Positions 10,025 to 54,413 of a stretch of DNA of 64,000 nucleotides are shown one piece after another (positions within the stretch are counted from its first letter, which is position 1; every line of letters starts with the position of its first letter). This DNA comes from a virus. Lineage: Duplodnaviria > Heunggongvirae > Uroviricota > Caudoviricetes. A program made the translations under genes and the position numbers. Below the pieces are notes generated by a model, which saw only the letters and a list, made by a program, of their open reading frames with translations, made no database searches and had not been told where the DNA came from. The stretch lies in IMG/VR virus record IMGVR_UViG_3300031993_000049. One strand, 5' to 3'.

Positions 10025-10927
10025 ATGAAGTGTGAAGGAAAAATATTGATCATATTACAAGGTCCTCCTTGTTCTGGAAAGTCCACATGGGCAAAGGAAT
10101 ATCAGGAAAAGTATCCTGATACATTGGTTGCCAATCGTGATACTATTCGTTATACGCTTGGCGAAGGTAAGTATACAATGGACAGAGAAGATGAGGTCAC
10201 TGAGATTGAAATGGCCCAGGTAAAGGGTGCAATGGGTGCTGGTAGAACTGTTGTTATTGACGACACTAACCTTAATCCTAAGTATCTTAAGCCTTGGTTA
10301 GACCTTGCTGAAGAAAAAGGCTATGAGGTAAGATATGAGAAATTGTACATACCTTATGGCGAGGCAATGGAACGTTCTAAGAAGCGTAAGGAAGAAGGTG
10401 GTCTTTACATATCAAAAGATGTAATGCAGCGTTTCTATAAGAAATACTTCAAGGAAGAATTCGAGAAGGAAATGACTGATTATCGTGTATTCAATATGAA
10501 TAAGTATGACGATAAATTACCTAATTGTGTTATATGCGATTTAGACGGTACTATTGCTATGCATACGGGCCGAACACCATTCGAGTGGGACAGATTATTC
10601 GAAGACCAAATTGATTGGCGTATGAAGGATATTTTGCGTGCCCTGGCTGCTACTGGTGCTGAGATTATATTCTTGACTGGTAGACAGGAATCTGTAAGAG
10701 AGAAGACAGAGGAATGGCTTACAGCCAATTTCGGTTGGAAACATCAGTTGATTATGCGTCCAGACAGAGAGTTTGGTAAGGGTAATGCTGTTAAGAAGGA
10801 ACTATACGAAAAGTACGTTAAGGGTAAGTATAATGTAATCTGTGTGTTTGATGACGCAAATTATTGCGTTGATATGTGGCGCAATGAGGGATTGTTAACA
10901 TTACAGGTTCAAGATTCAGATTATTAA
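10025..10927 (+). CDS. pnk: bifunctional polynucleotide 5'-kinase / 3'-phosphatase (T4 Pnk-like)
   Basis: N-terminal Walker A: ILQGPPCSGKSTWAKEY. C-terminal HAD motif I: VICDLDGTIAMHTG. Late VFDDANY acidic motif. Confidence 0.85.
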   Translation: MKCEGKILIILQGPPCSGKSTWAKEYQEKYPDTLVANRDTIRYTLGEGKYTMDREDEVTEIEMAQVKGAMGAGRTVVIDDTNLNPKYLKPWLDLAEEKGYEVRYEKLYIPYGEAMERSKKRKEEGGLYISKDVMQRFYKKYFKEEFEKEMTDYRVFNMNKYDDKLPNCVICDLDGTIAMHTGRTPFEWDRLFEDQIDWRMKDILRALAATGAEIIFLTGRQESVREKTEEWLTANFGWKHQLIMRPDREFGKGNAVKKELYEKYVKGKYNVICVFDDANYCVDMWRNEGLLTLQVQDSDY

Positions 10928-12024: not shown

Positions 12025-12426
12025 ATGAGAAAGAAAAAAGAAGAAGTAACAGAAGAGTTGGTACAGGAAGTTAAGTATCCAACAGTAGAAGAATTGGTAA
12101 TTGAGTGTATTAAACACGACATACCAGTAAACGGTGTTGACTATAATGGTAGAAACCTGGAGTATGAGATTGGCGGTTTCTCAAAGAGTGGTACTGGAAA
12201 ACTTACCACTGATGAGGACGGTAATACAATCTTAGTTACCAGATATAATACAGTAAACGAAGTAAGATCCTTTGAGGATATTGCTGACGTTGCATATGAT
12301 TGGTATTATAACTACCGAGACAGAGAACCATTTACACAGCCAGATTATAACTGGGCACCAATATTTGTTGAAATGGGTCTAATTGAGGAACGAATTGTTA
12401 AGACCTACGTCCCTGTAGTTCAATGA
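12025..12426 (+). CDS. hypothetical protein
   Basis: Co-oriented ORF. Confidence 0.7.
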   Translation: MRKKKEEVTEELVQEVKYPTVEELVIECIKHDIPVNGVDYNGRNLEYEIGGFSKSGTGKLTTDEDGNTILVTRYNTVNEVRSFEDIADVAYDWYYNYRDREPFTQPDYNWAPIFVEMGLIEERIVKTYVPVVQ

Positions 12427-12480
12427 ATAGAACGTGGGTTTCCTAAACCTAAGATCTGCGTTTGATTCGCAGCAGGGGTA
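12409..12480 (+). tRNA. candidate degenerate tRNA-Arg(CCU)-like cloverleaf
   Basis: Hand-folded 72-nt cloverleaf. Acceptor GTCCCTG/CAGGGGT (two terminal G.U). D-arm GTTC-AATGAATA-GAAC. Anticodon arm TGGGT-TTCCTAA-ACCTA with U33 and CCT at 34-36. T-arm CTGCG-TTTGATT-CGCAG. Lacks G18G19 and C56. Overlaps the last 18 nt of the upstream CDS. Confidence 0.3.
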
Positions 12481-12487
12481 CTTAAAA

Positions 12488-29355: not shown

Positions 29356-29922
29356 ATGACAGTAATATACGGAAATCGTGGAGATATGGACACCCTTATG
29401 CTACCTAGCATATGGGAGAGATTAGACAATGTAAATGTTGTTGAAATCGGTCTTAGAACGTTTCACTTCGAAGATAGAGTAGCAGAGGCAATAGCCAATG
29501 AGGATGATACTCTTATTCTTTGCGGCCACGGAACGTCCTGGGGCCTTCTACACCCCAATTTCCATACTGGACAGTATATTATTCACGAGAACAATTATCG
29601 TGACATACACGCAAGAAATTTGATATGTGTATGGTGCCATGCTGCTGACTTTGCTGAGAGATATCACGTAAACGGTTTTTTTAGTTCAATGTTCATATCG
29701 AACGTTAATGAAGCACAAGAGCACCTTGGTAATGGTACAGACCTTACACAAGATCAGATTGGAGACTCGGAATTGATATTCTGCAGAAGACTTAATGCAC
29801 TTCTTAGGGATGGTACACCACTTAACGAGTGGGTGCCTACTTTGAAGAGTTTAATGAATGAAAATAATATGGTGGAGAGATATAATTATAATGGTTTAAA
29901 ATTTTTTGAGAATTATGAATGA
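29356..29922 (+). CDS. hypothetical protein
   Basis: Co-oriented ORF. Confidence 0.7.
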   Translation: MTVIYGNRGDMDTLMLPSIWERLDNVNVVEIGLRTFHFEDRVAEAIANEDDTLILCGHGTSWGLLHPNFHTGQYIIHENNYRDIHARNLICVWCHAADFAERYHVNGFFSSMFISNVNEAQEHLGNGTDLTQDQIGDSELIFCRRLNALLRDGTPLNEWVPTLKSLMNENNMVERYNYNGLKFFENYE

Positions 29923-31384
29923 GATTTTTACACAAAGTGAAAACATCAAGCACGAGTACTGTTGTACTATCGTGCGCATCGGCGAGATCAAGCCAATCGA
30001 GGGCAGGGATCGAATTGTACAGACACTGGTAAACGGTTTGTCTATGGTAATTCGTAAGGACCAGGTAAAAGAGGGTGACCTTATGATTTACGCGATGAAC
30101 GAAACACAGTTGTCCGAGAAGTTCCTTGCTGCTAATAACCTGTATGCTATCGACTGTTACGAAAAGAACAGTAATGCCCCAGAGGTGGGTCAATTACTAT
30201 TCGACGGTAAGAACGATGAGGCAAAGGAACACGTTGGTTTCTTCAATAAGTATGGCCGAGTGAAATTGATTAGACTTGGTGGTGTACCTTCATTCGGATA
30301 CCTCTTCACTGTTAACGAACTTGCAAAGGTATATCCTGAGGTTCTTAATGTTAACCTTGAGGAACTGGTAGACACCGACTTCGATACCGTATGCGGTGAG
30401 GAATTTGTAAAGGTATATATGCCACCTGTAAAGGAAGCAACACCTCGTGGTTCAAAGGAAGCAAAAATGCAGCGTAAACTCGCTAAGTTTGATCGTATGC
30501 TTCCAGGCCAGTTTGCTTTCCACTATGAGACAAAGCAACTCGCAAGGTACATTTCTTACATCAAGCCTACCGACGTGGTAACCATTTCTGTTAAGATGGA
30601 CGGTACTTCATTTATTGTTGGTAATATCCTTGTTAAGTTCCCTAAGTGGGATGGTTTCTACAAGAAGATATTCCCATATCTTCCTAAGTTCCTACAATTC
30701 ACTCGCGAGGATTATGATATTGTTTATTCTTCACGTAAGGTGATTATCAATAAGGATATTAATCCTAACAAGGGTGAAGGATGGGATGGTGGTTCTGTAC
30801 AGAAGGCCATTACTGTAGTTGCCGATCTTATCAGGGACTATGTTCCTAAGGATATGACTATCTACGGTGAGATTGTTGGTTATTACAATCAGACTAACAA
30901 GGCTATCCAAACTCGTGGTGGTAAGGATTATGACTATGGTTGCCCAGTGGGTACCAACAGGTTTATGCCTTATCGAATTGTTACAAAGAACGAGGATGGT
31001 ACAAATCACGAATGGAACGTTTGTGAGGTTTACGATTGGACTATCAATTTCATGAAGGAACATGAGGACCTTGCTAAGTACGTACAACCAATCGTTATCG
31101 TTTACCACGGTACGCTTGCTGACCTTTATCCACAACTTGACGTTGAGAATCATTGGCACGAGAATGTTCTTGAGGCTATGAAGAACGACAAGAAGACACT
31201 TGGTCTTGAGGTATATGAGCCAATGTGTAAGGATAAGGTATGGCGTGAAGGTGTAGTACTCCGTGTTGACGACGATATGGTTAACGAAGCCTTCAAGTTG
31301 AAGAGTGTTAAATACTCTGAGAAGGAACGTGAGGATTACGACAAGGGTGTCATTGACCAGGAAGCAATGGAAGGATACCTTTAA
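29915..31384 (+). CDS. ATP-dependent RNA ligase-like nucleotidyltransferase with N-terminal OB-fold (tRNA-binding-domain-like) extension
   Basis: Motif I VKMDGTS (KxDG), motif III IYGEIVGYY, motif IV REGVVLRV, motif V FKLKSVKY. N-terminal EYCCTIVRIGEIKPIEGRDRIVQTLVNG resembles an OB domain. Track start 29906 is TTG; ATG used. Confidence 0.75.
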   Translation: MNEIFTQSENIKHEYCCTIVRIGEIKPIEGRDRIVQTLVNGLSMVIRKDQVKEGDLMIYAMNETQLSEKFLAANNLYAIDCYEKNSNAPEVGQLLFDGKNDEAKEHVGFFNKYGRVKLIRLGGVPSFGYLFTVNELAKVYPEVLNVNLEELVDTDFDTVCGEEFVKVYMPPVKEATPRGSKEAKMQRKLAKFDRMLPGQFAFHYETKQLARYISYIKPTDVVTISVKMDGTSFIVGNILVKFPKWDGFYKKIFPYLPKFLQFTREDYDIVYSSRKVIINKDINPNKGEGWDGGSVQKAITVVADLIRDYVPKDMTIYGEIVGYYNQTNKAIQTRGGKDYDYGCPVGTNRFMPYRIVTKNEDGTNHEWNVCEVYDWTINFMKEHEDLAKYVQPIVIVYHGTLADLYPQLDVENHWHENVLEAMKNDKKTLGLEVYEPMCKDKVWREGVVLRVDDDMVNEAFKLKSVKYSEKEREDYDKGVIDQEAMEGYL

Positions 31385-31391
31385 CATTCGA

Positions 31392-31428
31392 AAGGCAGGC
31401 TGAAAGGCTTGCCTTTTTAATTTTTTTT
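31392..31428 (+). terminator. intrinsic terminator (AAGGCAGGC-TGAAAG-GCTTGCCTT plus T-run)
   Basis: 9-bp stem with one G.U. Followed by TTTTTAATTTTTTTT, then GTATATTTAAAC. Confidence 0.65.
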
Positions 31429-31458
31429 GTATATTTAAACAATAAAAGATAATTAACT

Positions 31459-32884: not shown

Positions 32885-33498
32885 ATATGGAATATAATTA
32901 TAAATTTACAAGTGGTAAGAATATTTGGTTTACATCTGATATTCATTTTAATCATAAAAACATAATTAAGTACTGCCAACGTCCCTGGGAAACAGTAGAC
33001 GAAATGAATGAGGCGTTAATTGCCAACTGGAATTCGGTTGTTAAAAAAGACGACACGGTATTTATACTCGGAGACATTGGATTTGGAAGTGTTACTAAGA
33101 CAGTAGAATTGGTGTCACGATTAAACGGGCATAAAATTCTATTACCTGGTAATCATGATAGGGAATTCATTCATAAAGAAGAGGTTAGAGCGTTATTTGA
33201 CGACATCCTACCATTGGCATATATTAAAATTGAAGAATTTCATATATATTTATGTCACTTCCCATTCTTATGTTTCGACGGTGCATACAGTGGTGAAAAA
33301 GCAACTTGGCAATTGTTTGGCCACTGCCACTCAAAGAAAGGTTCATTTGGATTGGATTCACAAAGATTGATTCATTGTTATCCTACACAATATGATGTAG
33401 GTGTTGACAATAACAATTATTTTCCAATCTCATTTGAAACGGTTAAGGAAAAAATTTATGATCAGCAACAAAGTTTAAATTTGATTAGAGAATGTTAA
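32878..33498 (+). CDS. calcineurin-like metallophosphoesterase 2
   Basis: FTSDIHFNH, LGDIGFG, GNHD, GHCH motifs. Confidence 0.8.
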   Translation: MVNMEYNYKFTSGKNIWFTSDIHFNHKNIIKYCQRPWETVDEMNEALIANWNSVVKKDDTVFILGDIGFGSVTKTVELVSRLNGHKILLPGNHDREFIHKEEVRALFDDILPLAYIKIEEFHIYLCHFPFLCFDGAYSGEKATWQLFGHCHSKKGSFGLDSQRLIHCYPTQYDVGVDNNNYFPISFETVKEKIYDQQQSLNLIREC

Positions 33499-33734
33499 TA
33501 GAATTTAAGAAAGAGGTAAACTTCTGCAGTTTATGTCCTCATGGATTTACAGATGGCCCGTACTGGAACCCTGATTTTGAAGAGGAAGATTATAAGGTTT
33601 ATTGCATGATATTGGACAAAGTAGTTCACGAAGATTTACATTGGACTGAATGCGCAGCCAAGACTTCAAAAAGAACTGGGCTTGATGTACCTGGAGATTT
33701 TTGCCCGTTTAGTGAAAATAACAAACAACAATAA
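33492..33734 (+). CDS. hypothetical Cys-containing protein
   Basis: Co-oriented ORF. Confidence 0.55.
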   Translation: MLIEFKKEVNFCSLCPHGFTDGPYWNPDFEEEDYKVYCMILDKVVHEDLHWTECAAKTSKRTGLDVPGDFCPFSENNKQQ

Positions 33735-33753
33735 TAATTAAAAATTAAAAAGT

Positions 33754-34629
33754 ATGAAGAAATTATTTTATTTATTTGCATTAGTTGGTTCGCTAATGCT
33801 TGCAAGTTGCAATCCAGAACCAAAGCCAGCAGAGGTAACATTTGCAATTGGTGTTAGTGACATTACTGCTACTAGCGCACTTGTTACAGTTACTCCTTCT
33901 GACACAAACGCACTTTATTACTTCGACCTTTTCTCACAGGAAGTATATGATGAGTTCGAGACACCTACACAGGCTGCTGAGGACCTTCTACAATACATTC
34001 TTGATGGTGTTGAGGAATATCAAGAGTATGGTTATGACGTAGAACTTGTAGACTGGTTGTCTCAAGGCCAAGATCACTATGAATTCAGTACCCTAAGTCC
34101 TGAGACTTCATATGTAGTTGTTGCATTTAGAGTTGACACAGCAACAAGTGCAGTTGTAGGTACTGTTTATCACGAGGCTTTCACAACACATCCAGTTGAA
34201 CAGGTCGATCTTACATTTAATACCGAAGTAACTGATACAGCAATTTGGTTTGTACCAAATCTTGATGAGGTTGAATATTTCGCCACATTTATTGATGCAG
34301 ATACACTACAGGCATATGGTGTTACCGCTACTGAATATTTTGAGTATTTGGTAACTTACTACGGCGAATACATTGAATACTTCACAATGCACGGACCTAT
34401 CTATGTGGAACTTAGTGAGTTGAATCCTGGCTCTGATTACGTTTTCTTAGCACAGGCATACACAGGTGGTGTATGGAACTCAGATTTGTTCGCTGGATAT
34501 TTTAGCGCACCTACTGATGAACCAGCAGAAATTGCTCCTTCACGTCAGAAGATGTCATTCAATCACAAGGTCTATAAGAAGATGGCCAAGAGATTGACTA
34601 TTGAAAATAACAAAATTCAAAAACTCTAA
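33754..34629 (+). CDS. putative lipoprotein
   Basis: Signal peptide MKKLFYLFALVGSLMLASC with lipobox. Confidence 0.75.
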   Translation: MKKLFYLFALVGSLMLASCNPEPKPAEVTFAIGVSDITATSALVTVTPSDTNALYYFDLFSQEVYDEFETPTQAAEDLLQYILDGVEEYQEYGYDVELVDWLSQGQDHYEFSTLSPETSYVVVAFRVDTATSAVVGTVYHEAFTTHPVEQVDLTFNTEVTDTAIWFVPNLDEVEYFATFIDADTLQAYGVTATEYFEYLVTYYGEYIEYFTMHGPIYVELSELNPGSDYVFLAQAYTGGVWNSDLFAGYFSAPTDEPAEIAPSRQKMSFNHKVYKKMAKRLTIENNKIQKL

Positions 34630-34635
34630 TTAATT

Positions 34636-34854
34636 ATGAAGAATTGGACATGGCAACAGTGGACTGCACTTGGTATCATCGCTGCAGTCATTATCGCAGC
34701 AGTTGTACTTCACTTGGTACAACCTGAGGTATCATTTGCCTTCTTCGAGATTGGTGCCCTTGTAATGTTCGCCGTAGGCGTTGTTGCAGGATATCTTTTG
34801 AAGAAGAAGAACATTGTTAACGAAGAACCCGCAAAGCAACTTCTAAAAGACTAA
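34636..34854 (+). CDS. small membrane protein
   Basis: Hydrophobic ORF. Confidence 0.6.
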   Translation: MKNWTWQQWTALGIIAAVIIAAVVLHLVQPEVSFAFFEIGALVMFAVGVVAGYLLKKKNIVNEEPAKQLLKD

Positions 34855-34858
34855 AAGT

Positions 34859-35599
34859 ATGAAGATTTGCGCTATATCTGATTTACACGGAACGCTCCCC
34901 AGTATTGGGGAGTGCGACGTGGTTTTCATTTGCGGTGATATCTTTCCGACCAGGATTGATACGATGACAAAAGAATGCCACGAGTGGTTCAACGGTCCAT
35001 TTGCCGATTGGATCAATGAGTTACCTTGCAAACAAGTTTTTCTTATTGCTGGTAATCACGATTTTTATTTGGAAAGCGAATTGTCATACTTCGGTGAAAA
35101 TGAACAACACTATACTGAATTAAGCCGAATTAAAAGAATTATTCGTGAAAACGAGAAAATGAAGGATAAACTTGTGTACCTTCAAGATGAAAGTTATACA
35201 CTTGAAAACGGTATGAAAGTTTATGGTACACCTTGGTGTATTAGTCCTAAAGGATTTGCTTTCATTGATAGTTCAGGAAAACCATATGAAGAAATTCCAA
35301 TGGATTGTGACATCTTGTTAGTACATCAGCCACCAAGGGTAGGTAAATTAGGGTGTTCAAATCCTAATACACAATATGAAGTTAACTATGCAAGTAAATC
35401 ACTTGCAAATGCAATTGCTGACAGACATATCAAGTATGTGTTCTGTGGGCATATTCATAGTGGAATTCACGGTGGTATATACGTAGATGATACAAAAGAA
35501 ACATTATATCCGTTCTACAAGGATACTTTGTATTATAACGTATCAATTAAAGATGAAGAATATAAGGTTCGTTATGAACCAACTTTTGTAATGATATAA
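34859..35599 (+). CDS. calcineurin-like metallophosphoesterase 3
   Basis: ISDLHG, CGDIF, AGNHDF, GHIH motifs. Confidence 0.8.
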   Translation: MKICAISDLHGTLPSIGECDVVFICGDIFPTRIDTMTKECHEWFNGPFADWINELPCKQVFLIAGNHDFYLESELSYFGENEQHYTELSRIKRIIRENEKMKDKLVYLQDESYTLENGMKVYGTPWCISPKGFAFIDSSGKPYEEIPMDCDILLVHQPPRVGKLGCSNPNTQYEVNYASKSLANAIADRHIKYVFCGHIHSGIHGGIYVDDTKETLYPFYKDTLYYNVSIKDEEYKVRYEPTFVMI

Positions 35600-39790: not shown

Positions 39791-40348
39791 ATGAAAGTAT
39801 TTTTTGATACAGAATTTACTGGTTTACACAAAAATACAACGCTTATTAGCCTTGGTTGTGTAGACGAAGACGGTAGATCTTTTTATGCTGAGTTTGCCGA
39901 TTATGACAGGAACCAATGCGATGACTGGATTAAGAAACACGTATTGAAAAACCTCAAGTTTGACCGTGGTGATAGTATTGTAGGTCAACTTAATTCTGAT
40001 GAAGTAACTGAAATTTACGATGACAAGGAACACGTAAAAGAGGCCCTTGCAGAATGGTTGTCAGTATATGACGAAGTTCAATTAGTTTCTGACGTATGCC
40101 ATTACGATATGGTATTGTTAATTGACTTGTTTGGTAGTGCATTTGATTTACCAAAGAACGTTTGTCCGTCCTGTCACGATATTAACCAGGACATTGCTGA
40201 ACATTACGGTTGTTCTGAAAGAGAGGCGTTTGATAAGTCTCGTGAAGGTATCTTGGCTGATTATGAATTGGAAATTAGTGGGGACAAACATAATGCATTG
40301 TATGATGCGAAAGTAATTAAACGTTTGTACTTATACGTTTTAAAATAA
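39791..40348 (+). CDS. DEDDh 3'-5' exonuclease (DnaQ/oligoribonuclease-like)
   Basis: Exo I FFDTEFTG. Exo III HNALYDA near C-terminus. Confidence 0.8.
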   Translation: MKVFFDTEFTGLHKNTTLISLGCVDEDGRSFYAEFADYDRNQCDDWIKKHVLKNLKFDRGDSIVGQLNSDEVTEIYDDKEHVKEALAEWLSVYDEVQLVSDVCHYDMVLLIDLFGSAFDLPKNVCPSCHDINQDIAEHYGCSEREAFDKSREGILADYELEISGDKHNALYDAKVIKRLYLYVLK

Positions 40349-40368: not shown

Positions 40369-40866
40369 ATGCAAGTAAATGTTAGTATTGACATCGATGA
40401 GGCTTACGACAACCTACTCGGTGAACAAAAAAGAAATTTCCTAAGAAGTCATATTGTTGAATTAGGCTTTGAAGAACTAATGGAAGCAGCACAAGACGCA
40501 GACAGACTTCCAGATGTTAAAGTTATAATTAAAAGTGATCATAACAGAACACTCAAGAATGGCCCTGTATATGTTGCTGATAGTGAAAATAAAAAAGAAG
40601 CCGATCAAGGTGTTGAAGGTGAGGGTGAATACGCACCTGGAAAAGTAACAGAGCGTAATTTCACTCGTCCATACAAGAAGATGGGTACCGTTGAACCACG
40701 CTATACTGATAAATATAACATCGTAGGAGGTGAAATCAAAGACACAGCACTTGGTTTCATTTATGGTGCCATTAAGAAATATGGCGGTGATCTTCAATAT
40801 GTTGATGATCTTAAGATTTATATTAAGATGATGGCCGATAGAATCGGTGACGAAACAATTAATTAA
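40369..40866 (+). CDS. hypothetical protein
   Basis: Co-oriented ORF. Confidence 0.65.
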   Translation: MQVNVSIDIDEAYDNLLGEQKRNFLRSHIVELGFEELMEAAQDADRLPDVKVIIKSDHNRTLKNGPVYVADSENKKEADQGVEGEGEYAPGKVTERNFTRPYKKMGTVEPRYTDKYNIVGGEIKDTALGFIYGAIKKYGGDLQYVDDLKIYIKMMADRIGDETIN

Positions 40867-40867
40867 T

Positions 40868-41077
40868 ATGGAACTATTAGAAAATAACTATGGTAAGGTA
40901 CGGTGTCGCACATGTGACTCCGTACTAAAACCTGGTAAAGAGGATATACACTCAAACTATGATAATGAATATTATGTAATTTGTCCAGTTTGTGGTCAAG
41001 ATATTTGGTTTGATGGAAAGCCAAGTACTAATCCAGTTCTTAAACATATAATTCATGGTGGATTACCACATAGATAA
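40868..41077 (+). CDS. small zinc-ribbon protein (CRTCD...CPVCG)
   Basis: Trimmed to ATG after upstream stop. Confidence 0.55.
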   Translation: MELLENNYGKVRCRTCDSVLKPGKEDIHSNYDNEYYVICPVCGQDIWFDGKPSTNPVLKHIIHGGLPHR

Positions 41078-41096
41078 GTTTGGCACAGTTTTTGTA
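41078..41096 (+). promoter_or_regulatory. variant of the conserved element: GTTTGGCACAGTTTTTGTA (TGGCAC-N5-TTGTA)
   Basis: Keeps TGGCAC and TTGTA with the same spacing. Followed by TATATTTG box. Confidence 0.35.
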
Positions 41097-41128
41097 TATT
41101 TGTTGTAGTAACTTAAAAATTTAAAATA

Positions 41129-41353
41129 ATGAAACATTTGACAGAAAAAGAACTTTTTCCAGGTAAAGCGGTTAGATACTATCCTTTCATTGATGGCGAC
41201 GGTAATCCAGATAGCGAACCTAAACTTGGTATTGTAGCCAGTGGTCCTTACTATATATGTGGTAGTGTATGCTACAAACTCGCTGAGGTAAGTGCTGTAG
41301 TAGACATTGAAAATCTATTTGATGTATGGGACGAAGACAAAGTTAGTGAATAA
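41129..41353 (+). CDS. hypothetical protein
   Basis: Co-oriented ORF. Confidence 0.6.
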   Translation: MKHLTEKELFPGKAVRYYPFIDGDGNPDSEPKLGIVASGPYYICGSVCYKLAEVSAVVDIENLFDVWDEDKVSE

Positions 41354-41354
41354 T

Positions 41355-41561
41355 ATGAAACAAATTAAAGTAACAACAACCGCATCTGCAGTAGTAACCT
41401 TAGATGGTTTGGATATTGACGATGTAATTCAGCAAGCAGCAGACCTGGCACACGAGGTCCTGGAGGAACTGTCAATCTATAGACAGGAACACGATTTGGA
41501 TCCACTTACATTCAGTTGTGAGGGAAGTTGCTGTGCATTTTTGGACTTAATAGATGATTAA
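41355..41561 (+). CDS. hypothetical acidic protein
   Basis: Trimmed to ATG after upstream stop. Confidence 0.5.
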   Translation: MKQIKVTTTASAVVTLDGLDIDDVIQQAADLAHEVLEELSIYRQEHDLDPLTFSCEGSCCAFLDLIDD

Positions 41562-41563
41562 TT

Positions 41564-41935
41564 ATGACAAAGACAGCAGTAATGCAATCGGATTTTAACA
41601 TCACTGGAGAAATAGGTGGTGTTAAATATAAATATATAAAGATTCCATGGGTTGAACATCTAGAGATATATAAGTATTATCATGATAGTCAATCTGCGGA
41701 AAGAATTAATGAACGTGGTGGTTTTGGTGTAAGAGAAGCCGCTTATATGGGTTATAATCCTCTAGTTATTTGGGTAATTTATGATTACAGCGAAAAAGAT
41801 AGTGATTGGACAAAAGTAGCACTCCTTTTTGATAAAGACTCTGATTTTAGATCATACCGTTACAGGGTTTTAACTGAAGAAGAATACAAAAGTCTTGATA
41901 TATTTGAAAAAATTAAAGATACGTATGATAATTGA
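41564..41935 (+). CDS. hypothetical protein
   Basis: Co-oriented ORF. Confidence 0.65.
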   Translation: MTKTAVMQSDFNITGEIGGVKYKYIKIPWVEHLEIYKYYHDSQSAERINERGGFGVREAAYMGYNPLVIWVIYDYSEKDSDWTKVALLFDKDSDFRSYRYRVLTEEEYKSLDIFEKIKDTYDN

Positions 41936-42353
41936 AAATGAAAATTATGTTAGTTTTGAAACAGCAAAACTATTGAAAGATAATGGATTTGATTGGTCTT
42001 GCCGAGCAAGATACGGAAGTGCTGGTTCTTTCTGTTATGAAAAATATCCGATTGAAGCAAGTGGATGTGAAATGCACAATTGTATACTTTGTCCAACTCT
42101 TCAAATGGCTAAGAAATGGTTAGAAGAAGTTCACAATCTTTTCATTACTATTGAAATAAAAGGTGATCCACGAAAAGAGGATTTCATTTATTATAAATGG
42201 TCTGTTGCAAAATTTTGTTGTGTTAAAATTGAAAGAATTGATAACGGTTTAAACACACCAGAAGATTATTGGCTTGCACCTGAGGAAGAGGATGAAAAAC
42301 CTGAATATGCGTGTGAAGCAGCAATTAAATATTGTCTTGAAAATTTGATTTGA
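41925..42353 (+). CDS. Family-B paralog (YVSFETAKLLKDNGFD ... PTLQMAKKWL ... ACEAAIKYCLENLI)
   Basis: Shares N-terminus with 2328. Identical C-terminal 14 aa with 42350. Confidence 0.7.
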   Translation: MIIENENYVSFETAKLLKDNGFDWSCRARYGSAGSFCYEKYPIEASGCEMHNCILCPTLQMAKKWLEEVHNLFITIEIKGDPRKEDFIYYKWSVAKFCCVKIERIDNGLNTPEDYWLAPEEEDEKPEYACEAAIKYCLENLI

Positions 42354-42775
42354 TTATGATAGAAGAAGCATACGTTAGTTTTGAAGTGGCAAAACTTCTG
42401 AAAGAGAAGGGTTTTGATGTTGATACTCCAACAAGATATGCTATTGAAAAGGTAACAGAATCTTGGTATGATGATTATCGGGAAAGAGTTGTTAAATTCG
42501 ATTGGGATAGCGGTTATTTTTTAGGCATAAATGATATAAAACACGATATTAGTGGAGATACTATATCTGCTCCTACCCAACAGATGGCAATGCAATGGTT
42601 GAGAAAAATGGGTTGGTTTATTCATATTGATGTCATTCGAGAGGTGTCCTGCTGGACAGCAGATATTCAAGATATAAAGAATGATGTTGCCATTTATGCG
42701 GTTGAAAAAGAATTTCCCAACTATGAACAAGCATGTGAAGCAGCAATTAAATATTGCCTTGAAAATTTGATCTAA
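42350..42775 (+). CDS. Family-B paralog (YVSFEVAKLLKEKGFD ... ACEAAIKYCLENLI)
   Basis: Tandem with 41925. Confidence 0.7.
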   Translation: MIMIEEAYVSFEVAKLLKEKGFDVDTPTRYAIEKVTESWYDDYRERVVKFDWDSGYFLGINDIKHDISGDTISAPTQQMAMQWLRKMGWFIHIDVIREVSCWTADIQDIKNDVAIYAVEKEFPNYEQACEAAIKYCLENLI

Positions 42776-42777
42776 TT

Positions 42778-42975
42778 ATGACTAAGGAAGATAGAGTAGA
42801 ATTACAAAAGGCTGTATCTAATTTTCTTTACTCGTTTTCGAGCGAGGAAACACGAATGTATGCGCCGTGGGCATTTGATTCAACTGGTTTTCAAAAGCCA
42901 CTTTCAATTGCTGAATTTGCGGCTACATGGATGGAAAGACGTTTGTTAAACAAAATTAAAAATAAAATAAAATGA
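42778..42975 (+). CDS. hypothetical protein
   Basis: Co-oriented ORF. Confidence 0.55.
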   Translation: MTKEDRVELQKAVSNFLYSFSSEETRMYAPWAFDSTGFQKPLSIAEFAATWMERRLLNKIKNKIK

Positions 42976-43796
42976 AATTTAAAAGTCTAGAAGAAAAGTG
43001 TTTGTATTACAGAGGTTTAACTGATTATAAACTTCTGCCTAACAGTAATATTCTTGTCATGCTTGACGGTAAAAACTTTAGTCGTCTCATCAAGAATAAC
43101 TTTAAGAAACCGTTTGATGATGATTTTATCAGAATGATGAACAACACGGCTAAGTTCCTGTGTGAAAACGTACAGGGATGTAAGTTTGCATATGTTCAGT
43201 CTGATGAGATCTCATTGCTCATTACCGATTATGACACACCAGAGACCGACTTGCTGTTTGGTGGTAGACTTTGCAAGATTGAATCTATTCTTGCTTCCCT
43301 GGCTACGTCAGAGTTCAATCGCCAATTCATTAAGTATCACTTGTTTGAGAAGAGAGAAAATTGGTCTGGTGTTGGTTTCGCAGGCCTTTCTGATCAACTT
43401 GATAAAATGAAGATGGCTCAGTTTGACTGCAAGGCTTGGACTGTACCTAATTTTAACGATGCATTTGCTTGGTTCCTATATCGTCAGATTGACTGTATCC
43501 GTAACTCAAAGCAGCAGACTGCTCAAACCTATGTTCCACACAAAGAACTGGTTAAAAAAGATACTGATCAACAAATTGCAATTTGTAGAGAAAAAACCGA
43601 TATTGATTGGAATGATTTTGCCAACCAATACAAATATGGTAGATTTGTTTACAAGGTAGAAAAGGAACTTACTACTACTCTTCCTGACGGTAAGGAAATC
43701 ACTTATTTCAGAAACAAATTCGAGGCTGTACCAGCGTTTGAATTGACGAAGGAAGGAAATAAAGACAAGTTTATCAATCTTATTTTCGAATCATGA
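42972..43796 (+). CDS. Thg1-like protein (tRNA-His guanylyltransferase family 3'-5' nucleotidyltransferase)
   Basis: ILVMLDGKNFSRL (RLDGRNF), FKKPFDDDFIRMMNNTAKFL, AYVQSDEISLLI (YGQSDEYSF), ILASLATSEF: matches the Thg1 core motifs. Confidence 0.85.
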   Translation: MKFKSLEEKCLYYRGLTDYKLLPNSNILVMLDGKNFSRLIKNNFKKPFDDDFIRMMNNTAKFLCENVQGCKFAYVQSDEISLLITDYDTPETDLLFGGRLCKIESILASLATSEFNRQFIKYHLFEKRENWSGVGFAGLSDQLDKMKMAQFDCKAWTVPNFNDAFAWFLYRQIDCIRNSKQQTAQTYVPHKELVKKDTDQQIAICREKTDIDWNDFANQYKYGRFVYKVEKELTTTLPDGKEITYFRNKFEAVPAFELTKEGNKDKFINLIFES

Positions 43797-44077
43797 ACAG
43801 TGAACAACCAACATATTATCAACCGCTGACGCTTGAAAAATTGAATCAAGCGGTTGCAGAACTCGCTAGGCACCAGGCTATTCAAGAAAGAAACTTTGAG
43901 GCCTGGTACCAAAAAGCGTGTCAGATGAACCCAGACTTAAGAAAACAAGTTGAGGCAGAAATTCGAAGAGAGGTTAGTAAGTGGCGTAATGATAACTGTG
44001 ATTTTGAAGTCACTGAAAATCAAATAAGATCTTATTTAAAAACTAAACTAAGAGAACTTAGTGTATTTACAAGTTAA
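43793..44077 (+). CDS. hypothetical protein
   Basis: 4-nt overlap. Confidence 0.6.
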   Translation: MNSEQPTYYQPLTLEKLNQAVAELARHQAIQERNFEAWYQKACQMNPDLRKQVEAEIRREVSKWRNDNCDFEVTENQIRSYLKTKLRELSVFTS

Positions 44078-44079
44078 TT

Positions 44080-44913
44080 ATGGAAAACGAACACGTTGAA
44101 TTTTTTAAGAAATTATCAGAATATAGGAAAGAATGTGATGAACATTCTCCTGATTCATTTAGTATAGTTGCTCAGGAACTATACGGTATGAGTGTAAAAG
44201 AAGCCCAAATGCTTTTTACGAAGTATAAGAGGATCCTTGCTGGTTGGTGGGATTGGGAAGAAAATGAAGATGAAGGTATTGAAGTTGCCACAAAGGGTAA
44301 AGCAGTACTTGAGCATTCATTTAAACTAACTCCTTCCAAAAAGTGGGATGGTATTAAATCATACCTTGATAGTGACGAATACGGATATAAAAACCACATT
44401 GCTGTATGGGTTAAATATACCGATAAAGAGCAGCCACAAATGCTTGAATTAAAGATTGATTCGGTAAAGAACCTTGCTATGATTCACGATTTAGCCGAAA
44501 GGGAAGACGTTGAGGTTTTATGTATTGTACCTAGTGTTGATAGTATTTCAAATTTACAAGATTGTGAAAATGACGTTGATACCAGGAATGGTAGAATGCG
44601 TGTATATGATGGAGACATTTTTGTTCTTTCCAATCATGGTGCTGATGACTATTGGAATAGACCGAAAGAGAACGGTGTATATGTATGTATGCACGGTGCA
44701 TATCGCAGATTGCTTTACACTATTGGTAGAGGTTATGTTAATACCAGTAAGCAGCCTAACATAGCAAATAATAGTAGTCGTGATGACGATTATGGTGAGG
44801 TATTCACATATCACGAGGGTAAATGGAACCAGCATTTGCTTACTATGGATCACAAATGGAAACGAATTGGTAATATCCACGCAGATATAAGCCTGTTAAT
44901 GGAAAAAAATTAG
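44080..44913 (+). CDS. hypothetical protein
   Basis: Co-oriented ORF. Confidence 0.7.
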   Translation: MENEHVEFFKKLSEYRKECDEHSPDSFSIVAQELYGMSVKEAQMLFTKYKRILAGWWDWEENEDEGIEVATKGKAVLEHSFKLTPSKKWDGIKSYLDSDEYGYKNHIAVWVKYTDKEQPQMLELKIDSVKNLAMIHDLAEREDVEVLCIVPSVDSISNLQDCENDVDTRNGRMRVYDGDIFVLSNHGADDYWNRPKENGVYVCMHGAYRRLLYTIGRGYVNTSKQPNIANNSSRDDDYGEVFTYHEGKWNQHLLTMDHKWKRIGNIHADISLLMEKN

Positions 44914-44920
44914 TATAATT

Positions 44921-45316
44921 ATGACAAGAGAAGAATTTAAAGAACTTGCCGAGAAGAAATATCCAGTACAGAATGTAACTGTCAAAAGTAATGTAGGTGA
45001 TTTTTATACAACGCATGATGTTAATGAATTACCTAGAAAGGCTTTTATGGAGGCTTACGAGATATTGTTACTGGAACATATGGCTGACATAGACAAGACC
45101 ATTGACGAGACCAAGAAGTATATGCTTGGTAAATTGCCAAAATGGCACAAGGCTGATAGAGATATTGACACTGACATATTGGAGTATGCAATATTATTTA
45201 GACAGGATGGCGGAGATTATCCTGATTATGACACTGTTGAAGTAACCAACAGGTTACACAAAGGTGAATGGTATTTTGAATTATCTGATTTACAGAAACT
45301 ATTAAAAGAAGAATAA
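44921..45316 (+). CDS. hypothetical protein
   Basis: Co-oriented ORF. Confidence 0.65.
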   Translation: MTREEFKELAEKKYPVQNVTVKSNVGDFYTTHDVNELPRKAFMEAYEILLLEHMADIDKTIDETKKYMLGKLPKWHKADRDIDTDILEYAILFRQDGGDYPDYDTVEVTNRLHKGEWYFELSDLQKLLKEE

Positions 45317-45320
45317 GAAT

Positions 45321-45506
45321 ATGGATGATATAGACTGGGGAAGAATAATTACCGCTTTAGTCCTTACAGTATTAATAATCGGTTTAATTTGTTTGCTATT
45401 ATGGTTAGCAAAATATCATCCAGTTATTTTAGGCTGGTTACTTGGAGCAGTTTTTGTATTTAGTTTATTTATAATAATTTACGAAGAACTTGACGATTTA
45501 TGGTAA
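45321..45506 (+). CDS. small membrane protein
   Basis: Hydrophobic ORF. Confidence 0.55.
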   Translation: MDDIDWGRIITALVLTVLIIGLICLLLWLAKYHPVILGWLLGAVFVFSLFIIIYEELDDLW

Positions 45507-45871
45507 GAGTATTTTGGTTTTGTGTAGATAGTAACGGTGATGAGAAAATAACATCAAACCGTGATGGTTGGCAAAGGTTTTCACCATCTTTGTATTATGG
45601 AATATACAATGGTACTGTTGCTGATTTAGAAGAATTCCATAGGAAACAGCGTGCTGAAAAGAAGAAAGTAATTTCTTGGTATGATACACGAATGAAATAT
45701 GACCATTGGGTCGAACTTCATGATGAAATTGATATTGAGGCACCACGTGAAGGTTATCATCCAGATTGGAACTATCTACCTAAGGGTAGTATTGAAAAAA
45801 TAACAGGAAAGAAAATAACATGGGCCGATGAGCCTATTAAAATAGAAGAAGAATATGATAGCGAGAATTAA
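45500..45871 (+). CDS. hypothetical protein
   Basis: ATG overlapping upstream stop. Confidence 0.6.
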   Translation: MVRVFWFCVDSNGDEKITSNRDGWQRFSPSLYYGIYNGTVADLEEFHRKQRAEKKKVISWYDTRMKYDHWVELHDEIDIEAPREGYHPDWNYLPKGSIEKITGKKITWADEPIKIEEEYDSEN

Positions 45872-46292
45872 AAAAGAATTATGTGACCCAGTAAATGGGG
45901 AAGTAGTAGGTCCTTACTATCACTTGTATAAAGTAAAGGACGATGGAACCGAAGAATTGATCGAATCATTCAATGGCGATATAAAAGCAGCAGCACGCAG
46001 AGCAGAACAAATTGTGGACCTTGAGGCCTTGGATATAGCATATGAACAAAATCCAAATTGCTTTAGTTCCGTTGCATTTCCTCCTAATTATTATAATGTT
46101 AGAAGTAATGCGCCTGGGGCATTTAAACCAATTGAAGTTGATTCATACGAAGGTAAAGTAACTCGTGTAAACGAGGATTTCGTAGCGGTCAATTACAAGG
46201 ATGAAACTGGTGAGAACCAGATATTCTATGCAAACCCAGGTAAATACAAAATGGGAGATAAAGTACAAATTTTAGTTTGGCCAACAGAATAA
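45855..46292 (+). CDS. hypothetical protein
   Basis: Co-oriented ORF. Confidence 0.65.
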   Translation: MIARIKKELCDPVNGEVVGPYYHLYKVKDDGTEELIESFNGDIKAAARRAEQIVDLEALDIAYEQNPNCFSSVAFPPNYYNVRSNAPGAFKPIEVDSYEGKVTRVNEDFVAVNYKDETGENQIFYANPGKYKMGDKVQILVWPTE

Positions 46293-50301: not shown

Positions 50302-50736
50302 ATGAAAACAAGTGAACTTCAAAACGAAACCAGTTCTTTGATAAAAGAACATAGCAAATTGTATAAATTAATTGACGAAAAAGAAGAAGCCATTACAGTT
50401 AAAGCAAGGGAATTACTAAATGAATTGCGTAAACTGGATAATTGGGAGGTAATGATTGACGAGTGTAAAGACCACTATGAACGATTTCCTGACGAATTCT
50501 TTGATTGGTGTCATGTAGAATTTGAAAAAAATAAGGTTTATTTTGTGAAGAATTATAGTGATGACGATGACGATTATTATGTTCTTACTATTGATTTGTC
50601 TAAGCCTTTAGAAGATCAAATAAAGGAAAAACAAGAAAAGATAAAAAAAGACGAGGAAAAAGAAAAAGAAAAAATTAAGGCAAAAGAACTTGCCGAATTA
50701 AACCGTTTAAAAGAAAAATATGAAACATTACGATAG
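50302..50736 (+). CDS. hypothetical coiled-coil protein
   Basis: Co-oriented ORF. Confidence 0.6.
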   Translation: MKTSELQNETSSLIKEHSKLYKLIDEKEEAITVKARELLNELRKLDNWEVMIDECKDHYERFPDEFFDWCHVEFEKNKVYFVKNYSDDDDDYYVLTIDLSKPLEDQIKEKQEKIKKDEEKEKEKIKAKELAELNRLKEKYETLR

Positions 50737-51397
50737 TATACCGAGAATACAAGATGATGGCACTTTGAAAGGTGAAATGGTTGTAGGTTATAACAAACTG
50801 GATGGCCAAAACTTTTGTGTAGCATATAATTGTAGAAAGAAAACCTGGGGTCCTTACGGTTCCAGGACAGTGACTGTAGATGAAAACTCTGAACAGTTTG
50901 GAGAAACTGTAAAGTTCTTTAACAACTCTGATTACAAGGAGATTCTGGAAAGAATTGTGAAGGAGTTTTCTGGAAAGGGTGACGTGTTTAACGGTGTTGA
51001 TGAAATCACATTCATATTTGAATGGTATGGATGGAATTCATTTGCTGGGAAGCATAAAGAAGGTGATACGATGAACCTGGCTCTTATTGATGTATTCCTC
51101 AAAAAGAGAGGTTATATTGAACCAAAGAATTATGAAATGTGTTTCAGATATTGTGGTATTGAACTTCCCGATCTAATTTATTCAGGGCCGCTAAATAGCG
51201 AAATTATTGAAAAAGTTCAGAACAACGACTGGACACAACCTGATTGTTGGAATCCACACGTTCACGAAGGTGTTGTATTTAAAAGAACAACATTGCTTAA
51301 GGGTCAGCGTAGACCGTCTGTAAAGGTAAAAACAAAGTGGTGGATAGATAAACTTCATTCAATGTATAGTGAAGAGGAATGTAAAAAACTTGAGTAA
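50720..51397 (+). CDS. minimal Rnl2-like nucleotidyltransferase (second KxDG ligase)
   Basis: Motif I VGYNKLDGQNF (K ~ residue 26), motif IV HEGVVFK, motif V VKVKTKWW. No C-terminal domain. Confidence 0.65.
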   Translation: MKHYDSIPRIQDDGTLKGEMVVGYNKLDGQNFCVAYNCRKKTWGPYGSRTVTVDENSEQFGETVKFFNNSDYKEILERIVKEFSGKGDVFNGVDEITFIFEWYGWNSFAGKHKEGDTMNLALIDVFLKKRGYIEPKNYEMCFRYCGIELPDLIYSGPLNSEIIEKVQNNDWTQPDCWNPHVHEGVVFKRTTLLKGQRRPSVKVKTKWWIDKLHSMYSEEECKKLE

Positions 51398-53324: not shown

Positions 53325-53611
53325 CAAAGACATTTAGACAATTAGAACGAGGTGATAAGATTTTAGTTAAAAACATAACAAAACATGTACCTTGCAATGT
53401 TACAATAGACGACCATCATTACATAACGGAAGTTGTTAGTGAAGATAAAACAATGACTATTGACACATTCTCTCATTATGATAATGGTCTTGGAGGTAAG
53501 TTGGTAGAGTTTTATGCATATCCTTATTTAGGTGTAACTCTCAGATTTGAAATGGCTGTAGACGACTTAGATAAAACAGAAACAGAAAAATATAAAATAT
53601 TAGACATATGA
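53297..53611 (+). CDS. hypothetical protein
   Basis: Co-oriented ORF. True start may be the internal ATG at 53321. Confidence 0.5.
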   Translation: MAIKKRNHMTKTFRQLERGDKILVKNITKHVPCNVTIDDHHYITEVVSEDKTMTIDTFSHYDNGLGGKLVEFYAYPYLGVTLRFEMAVDDLDKTETEKYKILDI

Positions 53612-54006
53612 CAAATCAAGATAAAGAACTATTATTGAAAGACCTTTGTGGAAGGTTGTATTATGGCGTTAAATTTCACTATTTCTCAGAATTTGCTGAT
53701 GGTGAAGACCCAGAATTTGATAATACTATCGTAATGATAGATATGGCTGATGAGCAAATCCTTGACGAAGACCATGAAGATTATATTCCAATCAGACAGA
53801 TAGTGCCGTATCTCCGTCCATTATCTAGTATGACTGATGAAGAAGATAAAGAATTTGCTCTTCTTCAAACTGACTTTTATGTTGATGGGTTTCTTTATCC
53901 AATTGCAGCAGTAAATATGATTAATTGGCTTAATAAACATCATTTTGACTACAATGGATTAATTGAAAAAGGCTTAGCATTGGAGGCACCTAAAGATATG
54001 TATTAA
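53608..54006 (+). CDS. Family-A paralog 1 of tandem array
   Basis: MTNQDKELLLKDLCGRLYYGV ... VPYLRPLSSMTDEE ... HHFDYNGLIEKGLALEAPKDMY. Confidence 0.8.
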   Translation: MTNQDKELLLKDLCGRLYYGVKFHYFSEFADGEDPEFDNTIVMIDMADEQILDEDHEDYIPIRQIVPYLRPLSSMTDEEDKEFALLQTDFYVDGFLYPIAAVNMINWLNKHHFDYNGLIEKGLALEAPKDMY

Positions 54007-54008
54007 TT

Positions 54009-54413
54009 ATGGAAAAAGAAAAACAATATTTTAAGACTCAGATTACACGCAATGGATTAGATCTTATCGTTAAAGATATGTCTGCTCGTATAGCATACGG
54101 AGTAATGGTTTCCGATGTACATATGGATGGAGATGTATTAACCTCGCCATATAAATTGTGGGATATTATTATTGATGACTGGTACGATGAAAATTTTGAT
54201 AATTACCAAATGTGCTATCTTCGTCCCATGTCAAGTATGACAAAAAAAGAAAAAGAAGAGTTTGAAAAAACTTGTTTCTTTTCCAATGAGATTGGTACTA
54301 TTCAAACTATAGAAAGTGCTGATTGGTTAAATGCACATCACTTTGATTACCGTGGTTTAATTGAATTAGGTTTAGCATTTAAGGCCCCTAAAGATATGTA
54401 TAAATTCGAATAA
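54009..54413 (+). CDS. Family-A paralog 2 (divergent N-terminus)
   Basis: CYLRPMSSMTKKEKEE ... HHFDYRGLIELGLAFKAPKDMYKFE. Confidence 0.8.
   Translation: MEKEKQYFKTQITRNGLDLIVKDMSARIAYGVMVSDVHMDGDVLTSPYKLWDIIIDDWYDENFDNYQMCYLRPMSSMTKKEKEEFEKTCFFSNEIGTIQTIESADWLNAHHFDYRGLIELGLAFKAPKDMYKFE

Follow-up and report, generated by a model that had tools for sequence, protein, structure and literature searches.

An altered incoming-nucleotide site in a Thg1-like protein of a Lak-related phage and its possible part in the repair of tRNA 5' ends

The Thg1-like proteins (TLPs) BtTLP, of Bacillus thuringiensis, and MaTLP, of Methanosarcina acetivorans, are 5-160-fold better at the templated repair of 5'-truncated tRNAs, whatever the identity of the tRNA, than at -1 addition (PMC3061083); however, while bacterial-type TLPs repair tRNA in vitro, no natural source of 5' truncation has been established. 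The occurrence of such proteins in large phages is already documented (2010, 2021): a Thg1 homologue was noted in 2010 in Pseudomonas phage 201phi2-1, together with the suggestion that it might serve RNA repair against host defences in partnership with a polynucleotide kinase (PMC2904730), and comparative genomics has counted Thg1 among the RNA-repair functions of jumbo phages, again with a predicted polynucleotide kinase cooperation (PMC7824862; PMC2904730). Here we analyze a phage TLP gene located at positions 42972..43796 (plus strand, 274 aa) of a 64,000-nucleotide stretch of the IMG/VR virus record IMGVR_UViG_3300031993_000049, hereafter the window, whose assignment draws on Pfam, PHROG and PDB matches and on an AlphaFold2 (AF2) model. 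What stands out is the lineage to which this gene belongs, in which the residues that face the incoming nucleoside triphosphate (NTP) depart from those of the canonical enzymes in a concerted manner and which we therefore call rewired.

We consider with moderate confidence that this is the gene for a catalytically competent TLP in a huge Lak-related phage and that, by analogy with the characterized enzymes, this protein would carry out anticodon-independent repair of 5'-truncated tRNAs during infection. Both the enzymatic activity and the tRNA substrate we infer from that analogy; tRNA 5'-end repair as the function of the protein is given about the same degree of credence, and a role in counter-defence a lesser one.

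Identity, fold and catalytic residues

The open reading frame (ORF) at 42972-43796 starts with ATG, stops with TGA and runs uninterrupted over 274 aa, and the four strings on which the original prediction had relied are all found in it letter for letter: VMLDGKNFSR (residues 29-38), FKKPFDDDF (44-52), AYVQSDEISLLI (73-84) and ILASLATSEF (106-115). The Pfam family PF04446 (Thg1) covers residues 17-159 with 97.5 bits, the cutoff being 29.2 (E=7.5e-28), and PHROG 4717, 'tRNA-His guanylyltransferase', covers residues 14-239 (E=2.8e-53); the Pfam Thg1C model is not matched at E<=1, being sub-threshold for the canonical phage TLPs too, and no NCBIfam model matches the protein. Among PDB sequences the top match is BtTLP (4KGK, E=1.7e-26), followed by the archaeal TLP 5AXK (1.9e-8) and by eukaryotic Thg1s (2e-8 to 2e-6), and a profile built from the 59 homologues of our clade alignment (56-90% identity) improves the BtTLP match to E=2.2e-38. 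The same alignment underlies the AF2 monomer model (pLDDT 89.7, pTM 0.88), which contains the RRM-like palm fold and the C-terminal domain of the solved Thg1/TLP structures; in a Foldseek search of this model against the PDB, ranks 1-32 are all Thg1/TLP chains (E 4e-20 to 1e-12), headed by BtTLP 4KGM (E=4e-20, target-normalised TM 0.86) and in the same order as the sequence ranking. The Thg1-like identity initially proposed is thereby borne out by strong Thg1/TLP matches in the Pfam, PHROG, PDB-sequence and clade-profile searches and by structural comparison, a check suggested at the time, in which the significant matches are exclusively Thg1/TLP, and membership of the Thg1 superfamily is a near-certainty.

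The metal-binding carboxylates, whose alignment had likewise been recommended, are aligned and kept, so that neither of the two outcomes named beforehand as refuting the prediction (no significant Thg1/TLP profile match, or lost catalytic carboxylates) was seen. D32 (codon 43065..43067, plus strand, as are all codons below) is the first of them, equivalent to human D29 and BtTLP D30, and is D in 134 of the 140 family representatives, clustered at 50% identity, on which the comparison of the site is based; S77-D78-E79 (43200..43208), comprising the activation-site Ser and the second and third carboxylates, are equivalent to human S75/D76/E77 and BtTLP S74-D75-E76 and are present in 139 of the 140. 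K46, the equivalent of the K44/K43 that takes part in the activation step, is Lys in the query and K, R or L across the rewired class, and the segment R99 to K102 (43266..43277) ends with the conserved counterpart of BtTLP K99 and yeast (Sc) Thg1 K96. Altogether D32, G33, F36, S77, D78, E79, K102, D152, R171, D174 and N178 are each found in 134-139 of the 140 representatives, and in the 59-member clade alignment 61 positions are invariant, among them S77 and the whole metal site, with K46 as the only aligned catalytic residue that varies. Because the catalytic residues are invariant or nearly so across the clade, the alignment indicates that they are under purifying selection.

Other features separate the protein from the eukaryotic enzymes. 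The strictly conserved R171 (BtTLP R147) opens the segment R171 to Q182 (RQIDCIRNSKQQ, 43482..43517), which occupies the place of the eukaryotic RQxDCHINNLYN; the HINNLYN motif itself is absent, RQIDCIRNSKQQT standing against the RQxDCHINNLYNT of human and Candida Thg1, and RNSKQQ replaces it in a segment that resembles the RQQDASKNSISM of BtTLP. Toward the C-terminus the AF2 model predicts a long beta-hairpin (residues 224-254, strands 224-236 and 242-254; 43641..43733), the presumed equivalent of the MaTLP hairpin that, with its 'completely conserved' R215, binds the tRNA elbow and measures the length of the acceptor stem (PMC4820378). R247, conserved as Arg in both classes (60 of 67 rewired representatives, 49 of 69 canonical ones), is the presumed counterpart of R215, as judged from its place in the modeled hairpin rather than from a superposition. 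Since HINNLYN is missing, the hairpin Arg is kept and bacterial TLPs match best, the product is on sequence grounds a TLP and not a bona fide tRNA-His-specific Thg1 of the eukaryotic type, which is marked by HINNLYN and N161 in its C-terminal domain and by the addition of G-1 opposite A73 without a template.

The incoming-nucleotide site and its lineage

In the BtTLP-GTP structure E12 forms salt bridges to R28 and R131, the alpha-phosphate of the NTP is held by R28 and K99', and the gamma-phosphate by R131, R16' and K99', the primed residues lying at the subunit interface (PMC3701042). Nucleotidyl transfer by yeast Thg1 depends on R27 (PMC3701042; PMC6471195), and R27, K96 and R133 are the conserved transfer residues listed in a 2019 review in which viruses go unmentioned (PMC6471195), as they do in a 2024 tools paper. 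In the phage protein K96 is kept as K102 and R133 is conservatively replaced by K154, but R27 is lost, the Met of VMLDG sitting at the conserved Arg of VRxDG (ScThg1 R27, BtTLP R28). This M30 (43059..43061), which stands in the place of a ligand of the incoming alpha-phosphate, was overlooked in the original prediction, and so was its position among a series of co-varying changes: R14 (43011..43013) stands for BtTLP E12 / ScThg1 E13, the salt-bridge partner of R28 and R131; D18 (43023..43025) for BtTLP R16', the gamma-phosphate ligand contributed by the partner subunit; R99 for BtTLP N96; and K154 (43431..43433) for BtTLP R131 / ScThg1 R133, also a gamma-phosphate ligand. In the dimer-of-dimers assembly of the superfamily, whose active site lies where two subunits of a dimer meet, the two interface residues of BtTLP, R16' and K99', thus map to D18 and K102.

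Among the 140 representatives these positions define two classes. Canonical members have E at position 14, R or K at 18, R at 30, N at 99, R at 154 and, at the activation-site position 182, M (BtTLP M158), whereas the class of the query has R at 14 (Q in a side branch), D or E at 18, M at 30 (H in the same side branch as Q14), R at 99, K at 154 and Q at 182. The pairs formed by positions 14 and 30 are E-R in 68 sequences, R-M in 45 and Q-H in 10, with no other pair occurring more than twice, and the mutual information with class amounts to 0.96 bits at position 14, 0.82 at 154, 0.66 at 18 and 0.65 at 99. R99 is present in 59 of 59 representatives of the M/H type, and within the clade M30 is conserved to at least 90% and paired with a conserved R14. 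A neighbor-joining tree divides the family near-cleanly into 69 canonical sequences plus 2 intermediates and 64 rewired ones, a split that indicates one old divergence of the rewired class with few intermediates (RMR, QHR, EKR).

By our own count the formal charge over positions 14, 18, 30, 99, 102 and 154 is +3 in both configurations, and this equality suggests that the positive groups have moved (R14 for R28, R99' for R16') rather than that the site has been lost; homology to the BtTLP contacts and covariation argue for R14 and R99 as the residues that would take over phosphate binding. Because the transfer residues lie outside the Pfam definition, membership of the superfamily is kept and what has to be flagged is a divergent subfamily. 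The replacement of Glu-Arg-Arg by Arg-Met-Lys and of Arg/Asn by Asp/Arg amounts to a natural experiment on how a reverse-polymerase site holds its nucleotide, and the rewired enzymes could offer other NTP preferences for the 5'-end labeling of RNA, a use already pursued with canonical TLPs (PMC11404450).

Homologues were found by tblastn in 157 of 50,697 GenBank phage records (0.3%), including Bacillus, Caulobacter, Mycobacterium, Erwinia and Vibrio phages, and many of them are annotated as tRNA-His guanylyltransferase; the initial remark that the enzyme is rare in viruses is thus right as a matter of frequency, but phage members are well established, the family having its own PHROG 4717 and many annotated members. 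The four cultured-phage TLPs that we compared (phage G, fHe-Yen9-04, 201phi2-1 and FNU3) have the canonical E/R/R and that of Lak-B2 the rewired configuration, and in GenBank the query has its closest relatives in the Prevotella Lak megaphages, whose records are unannotated (52-54% identical across 97-99% of the protein); since megablast against the GenBank phages, Lak included, retrieved no near-identical DNA, the source phage lies outside that collection. Metagenomic homologues are plentiful, with 2,237 word-index matches and, at E<=1e-3, 4,606 representatives. The contigs that carry close relatives (57-75% identity) are 300-470 kb long, and 53 IMG/VR contigs, the largest of 673 kb, contain signature peptides of the clade. 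The rewired clade accounts for ~64 of 135 family representatives, and every member whose context is known comes from a huge-phage contig; no additional Pfam domain was detected in its longer members (344-476 aa), whose extensions are possibly gene-calling artefacts. A cellular origin of the rewired type finds no support in 185,579 species-representative cellular genomes, where a pattern method that reaches close relatives only, and whose negative is accordingly weak, returned short partial matches only, and the lineage is apparently restricted to huge phages. The searchable literature yielded no description of the rewired subgroup: no paper pairs 'megaphage' with 'guanylyltransferase', and the combination of 'Thg1-like' with 'phage' retrieves only incidental mentions.

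Candidate functions and genomic setting

Under the preferred reading of tRNA 5'-end repair, a tRNA short of 1-2 nucleotides at its 5' end would span the dimer, with the 5' end in one active site and the elbow on the hairpin (R247) of the other subunit. ATP or GTP would serve, at the two-metal site (D32, D78, E79; K46, S77), to activate the 5'-monophosphate, which the phage Pnkp could make where a break leaves a 5'-OH, and the incoming NTP would form a Watson-Crick pair with N72 or N73 on the acceptor stem's 3' strand, its triphosphate being gripped by R14, K154, R99' and K102' in place of R28, R131, R16' and K99. Attack of the 3'-OH of this NTP on the activated 5' end would result in 3'-to-5' growth, and the hairpin would bring addition to an end once the acceptor stem has reached its full length. 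In concert with Pnkp, two RNA ligases, phosphoesterases and an exoribonuclease, the enzyme might belong to a dispersed toolkit that keeps translation going when tRNAs of the host or of the phage are damaged.

The components of this putative toolkit are present in the window. A T4-like Pnkp (P-loop kinase plus HAD_PNKP) is encoded at 10025..10927, 33 kb upstream of the TLP gene, a 489-aa RNA ligase (PHA02142 OB domain plus RNA_ligase) at 29915..31384, ~12 kb upstream, an Rv2179c-like / RNase T-type 3'-5' exoribonuclease at 39791..40348, 2.6 kb upstream, and a 225-aa RNA ligase at 50720..51397, 6.9 kb downstream, all four on the plus strand; there are also three calcineurin-like metallophosphoesterases (31970-32884, 32878-33498 and 34859-35599; 7-11 kb upstream) and a NUDIX gene (11119-11586, ~31 kb upstream). 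Pnkp may supply the 5'-phosphate ends for the TLP, with its gene at that distance of 33 kb. The run made up of the 489-aa ligase and then the three metallophosphoesterases (29915-35599), which may be an end-healing and sealing module, has counterparts of the ligase and of one phosphoesterase near the Lak-B2 TLP as well, where the best-match ligase homologue (34% identity) lies ~2.6 kb downstream; in two related loci, L003 and L004, the 225-aa ligase has close homologues (70-76% identity) at a distance of 2-5 kb from the TLP. The description of the TLP gene as sitting among RNA-repair enzymes needs qualification, in that such enzymes do occur in the window but lie 3-33 kb off, and the immediate neighbors have no Pfam match.

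Of 57 related loci, 17 have an RNA ligase homologue no more than 10 kb from the TLP gene, three have Tpt1 and four have Pnkp-like kinases, and in 13 SSB lies within 5 kb. One sub-lineage shows the gene order MazG ... TLP ... SSB, thioredoxin, and a second has two RNA ligases, an ATP-grasp protein and Tpt1/KptA 0.3-9 kb upstream of the TLP; this RNA 2'-phosphotransferase is found at 7251-7799 in L003, at 9149-9721 in L004 and ~1.4 kb upstream of the TLP in L017, with two RNA ligases alongside, and a search of the window with the seeds used found no Tpt1 homologue. The gene counts suggest a link between TLP and RNA-repair genes that is recurrent but loose, not conserved and possibly no stronger than chance. 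Conserved partner genes were sought by a Pfam/PHROG scan of the flanks and by comparison with six relative loci (L001-L006), and none emerged.

Several observations weigh against a repair function. The exchange of R27 for alanine in yeast Thg1 strongly impairs nucleotidyl transfer, and the loss of this Arg from the phage protein could mean altered chemistry or lower activity instead of a compensated site. The ten genes that flank the TLP gene (40369-46292) have no Pfam match, their PHROG matches being limited to 12005/25117 and 31233, all of unknown function, and L001-L006 contain no homologue of the flanking genes; many of the relatives' TLPs adjoin SSB and MazG instead of RNA-repair genes, and in the four cultured phages no gene annotated for RNA repair lies within 5 kb of the TLP. 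Likewise, we identified no defence nuclease specific for the removal of the 5'-terminal nucleotides of tRNA; on a lesion at the 5' end, the Retron-Eco7 paper offers nothing usable about the cleavage site. In the searchable literature there is no measured activity, substrate or phenotype for any phage TLP.

A more far-reaching proposal, possible but doubtful in our judgment, is that the R14/M30/K154/D18/R99 clade constitutes a distinct, huge-phage-restricted branch of 3'-5' polymerases whose rebuilt site would confer a nucleotide or substrate specificity other than that of cellular TLPs, and which would reverse a specific host attack on the 5' or acceptor ends of tRNA. If this were true, a prokaryotic-type TLP would for the first time have a counter-defence role and a clear function in vivo; if, on the other hand, the site is merely compensated, the gene is an ordinary added member of a known phage gene family.

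The rebuilt site might also serve a different reaction altogether, with another NTP preference, a non-tRNA RNA as substrate, or the modification or capping of phage RNA 5' ends, which we regard as unlikely. That five transfer-site residues switch together, with a near-clean bipartition of the family, and that the rewired members with known context are all on huge-phage contigs would fit such a change, as would the Gln at position 182 in lieu of the TLP Met. MaTLP R136 contacts the 5'-terminal base and the template C72 (PMC4820378), and its place would be taken here by K154 if, as motif position rather than alignment suggests, R136 is the equivalent of BtTLP R131; furthermore, one report ascribes distinct, partly non-tRNA-His roles to some eukaryotic TLPs (PMC5041481). 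However, the equal net charge of the two configurations and the retention of K102 and R171 suggest that the ligand is still the triphosphate of an NTP, the tRNA-elbow hairpin and R247 are kept in a model with a TM of ~0.86 to BtTLP, and neither fused domains nor conserved partner genes hint at another substrate.

A function in maturing or maintaining tRNA-His, whereby G-1 would be added or restored opposite C73 for charging by HisRS, appears quite unlikely. The family takes its name from this reaction; the addition of G-1 to C73-tRNA-His is as efficient with BtTLP as with yeast Thg1, at a kcat/KM of ~5500 M-1 s-1 (PMC3061083), and MaTLP has a second, anticodon-dependent mode of binding tRNA-His (PMC4820378). 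Moreover, the 10 kb upstream of the TLP gene harbor dense tRNA arrays in two related phages (19 tRNAs at 426-8394 of L020 and 14 at 64-5329 of L038), each with a tRNA-His(GTG) gene that has C73; the two tRNA-His genes lie 4.7 and 7.9 kb upstream of their TLP genes. Nevertheless, both of these genes, preceded by the identical pentamer ACATG (ACATG|G...), carry G at -1, as bacterial tRNA-His genes do, whose G-1 is transcribed and then kept, and with G-1 encoded in the gene its post-transcriptional addition is not obligatory in the lineage; tRNA-His maturation is for this reason disfavored as the main role, and the sequences speak against tRNA-His maintenance. The protein lacks HINNLYN and its best matches are repair-type TLPs, the majority of related loci lack a tRNA within 10 kb of the TLP gene, and an Rfam scan of the window detected a single tRNA and nothing else, hence no tRNA-His. 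That one gene, a tRNA-Arg(CCT) at 12409..12481 (plus strand), 30.5 kb upstream of the TLP gene, is the possible tRNA mentioned in the original prediction and proves to be real.

It is very unlikely that the gene is a decaying or impaired passenger that has lost an essential Arg and has no current function: a residue important for transfer in the yeast enzyme, R27 (PMC3701042; PMC6471195), is indeed Met here, but the ORF is intact, the invariant positions of its homologues include the metal site, the Met is itself conserved and paired with a conserved R14, and the clade is an old and extensive one (64 representatives at 50% clustering, 53 IMG/VR contigs). Least probable of all, to the point of being negligible, is a nucleotide-signal synthase or cyclase-like palm enzyme akin to GGDEF, mCpol and Cas10, for although the Thg1 palm is homologous to GGDEF and Cas10 (PMC2904730; PMC11974786) and weak Foldseek matches to GGDEF and adenylyl cyclase palm domains begin at rank 33, these have E>=0.02 and TM<=0.28 as opposed to E<=1e-12 for all Thg1/TLP chains, and the protein has the complete two-domain TLP architecture with its tRNA-binding hairpin.

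As for the rest of the locus, the start of the TLP gene shares ATGA (42972-42975) with the stop of a 65-aa ORF upstream and its stop shares ATGA (43793-43796) with the start of a 94-aa ORF downstream, and because of these overlaps the gene is probably translationally coupled to both small ORFs within a dense co-directional gene string, the window (35% GC) having ~150 genes, mostly small, 147 of them on the plus strand. A scan for promoters and terminators near the gene gave 43 matches against 39.8 ± 6.5 expected, that is, chance, with a sigma-70 consensus probably unsuited to a Bacteroidota-type host. Directly upstream of the TLP gene lie two tandem members (41925-42353 and 42356-42775) of a three-paralogue family whose third member is at 2328-2684; the tandem copies match PHROG 12005 (unknown function), have ACEAAIKYCLENLI as a common C-terminal motif and are without homologues in L001-L006. 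Another family, of unknown function, comprises six paralogues (34-47% identity) with an N-terminus like MTQE(E/D)KELLLKDLCARLPYGV, five of them near-tandem (53608-54006, 54009-54413, 54416-54850, 54853-55302 and 55528-55887) and one at the opposite end of the window (231-632). Just upstream of Pnkp there are two tandem paralogues of 214-215 aa with 39% identity (8139-8786 and 8798-9442), of which the one scanned has no Pfam match.

At its 5' end the tRNA-Arg(CCT) gene overlaps the final 18 nt of the ORF at 12025-12426, and its anticodon recurs in a tRNA found 2.7 kb upstream of the TLP gene in the related IMG/VR loci L065 and L066. In a further related locus (L061, 17276-17348) a CTA-anticodon tRNA ('Pyl' by ARAGORN, amber-reading) lies 6.5 kb downstream of the TLP gene and suggests reassignment of TAG in that phage; in the window, TAG is the stop of 8 of the ~150 ORFs. 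In the largest ORF of the window (19342-21555, 737 aa) the sole domain is a small GNAT acetyltransferase (residues 222-296), a 387-aa protein with an SPFH/Band 7 domain is encoded at 25124-26287, and a BspA-type leucine-rich-repeat protein fused to DUF7666 at 12960-13775 (E=3.5e-43 and 8e-32). BspA-type repeats are typical of Bacteroidota and of oral and gut anaerobes, and the protein fits a Prevotella-like host. Lastly, the 394-kb phage contig of locus L005 carries an IS605 OrfB / TnpB (Cas12f-like) gene at 1373-2524, 7.5 kb from the TLP gene.

Comparison with known systems

A TLP lineage carried by many huge gut and rumen phages along with Pnkp, RNA ligases and sometimes Tpt1 offers a setting, infection pressed by tRNA-targeting defences, in which tRNA repair as a role of such enzymes could be put to the test. 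With the eukaryotic Thg1s (human 3OTB, yeast 5XOX, Candida 3WBZ) the query shares the palm fold, the three carboxylates and the equivalents of K44, S75, K96 and R147, but at ~18-21% identity it lacks HINNLYN and any sign of specificity for the tRNA-His anticodon, and the equivalents of R27 and E13 are replaced. MaTLP (5AXK-5AXN; ~21% identity) is, like the enzyme proposed here, a templated repair enzyme with an Arg in a tRNA-elbow hairpin, for which the modeled hairpin 224-254 and R247 would be the counterparts, and differs in retaining the canonical 'LRADG' Arg and R136.

BtTLP (4KGK/4KGM) is the best match in both sequence and structure, with the same two-domain fold, the D/SDE metal site, K43, K99 and R147 and no HINNLYN, and its chemistry, namely activation with ATP or GTP and then templated 3'-5' addition on 5'-truncated tRNAs, is by analogy the one to be expected of the phage protein. 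The two are nevertheless only ~25% identical in the structural alignment, one being bacterial and the other phage-encoded; E12/R28/R131/R16'/N96 of BtTLP give way to R14/M30/K154/D18/R99, and M158 to Q182, and the query adds a helix-loop-helix of ~20 residues (~122-147) and a longer C-terminal tail.

Among phages, the TLPs of phage G (gp378), 201phi2-1 (gp319), fHe-Yen9-04 (g142) and Fusobacterium phage FNU3_59, the first three with Bacillus, Pseudomonas and Yersinia hosts, respectively, are proteins of ~245-270 aa in PHROG 4717 that come mostly from jumbo phages, are annotated as tRNA-His guanylyltransferase and in no case are operonic with RNA-repair genes; they are 25-33% identical to the query and have E/R/R where it has R/M/K. 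The Lak phages A1 and B2/B5/B9 (~540-550 kb), in contrast, whose DNA is dissimilar, whose TLPs have other immediate neighbors and go undescribed in the unannotated records, share with the query the full R14/M30/K154/D18/R99/Q182 configuration and carry, 2.6-7 kb downstream of their TLP genes, homologues of its 489-aa RNA ligase and of one of its metallophosphoesterases.

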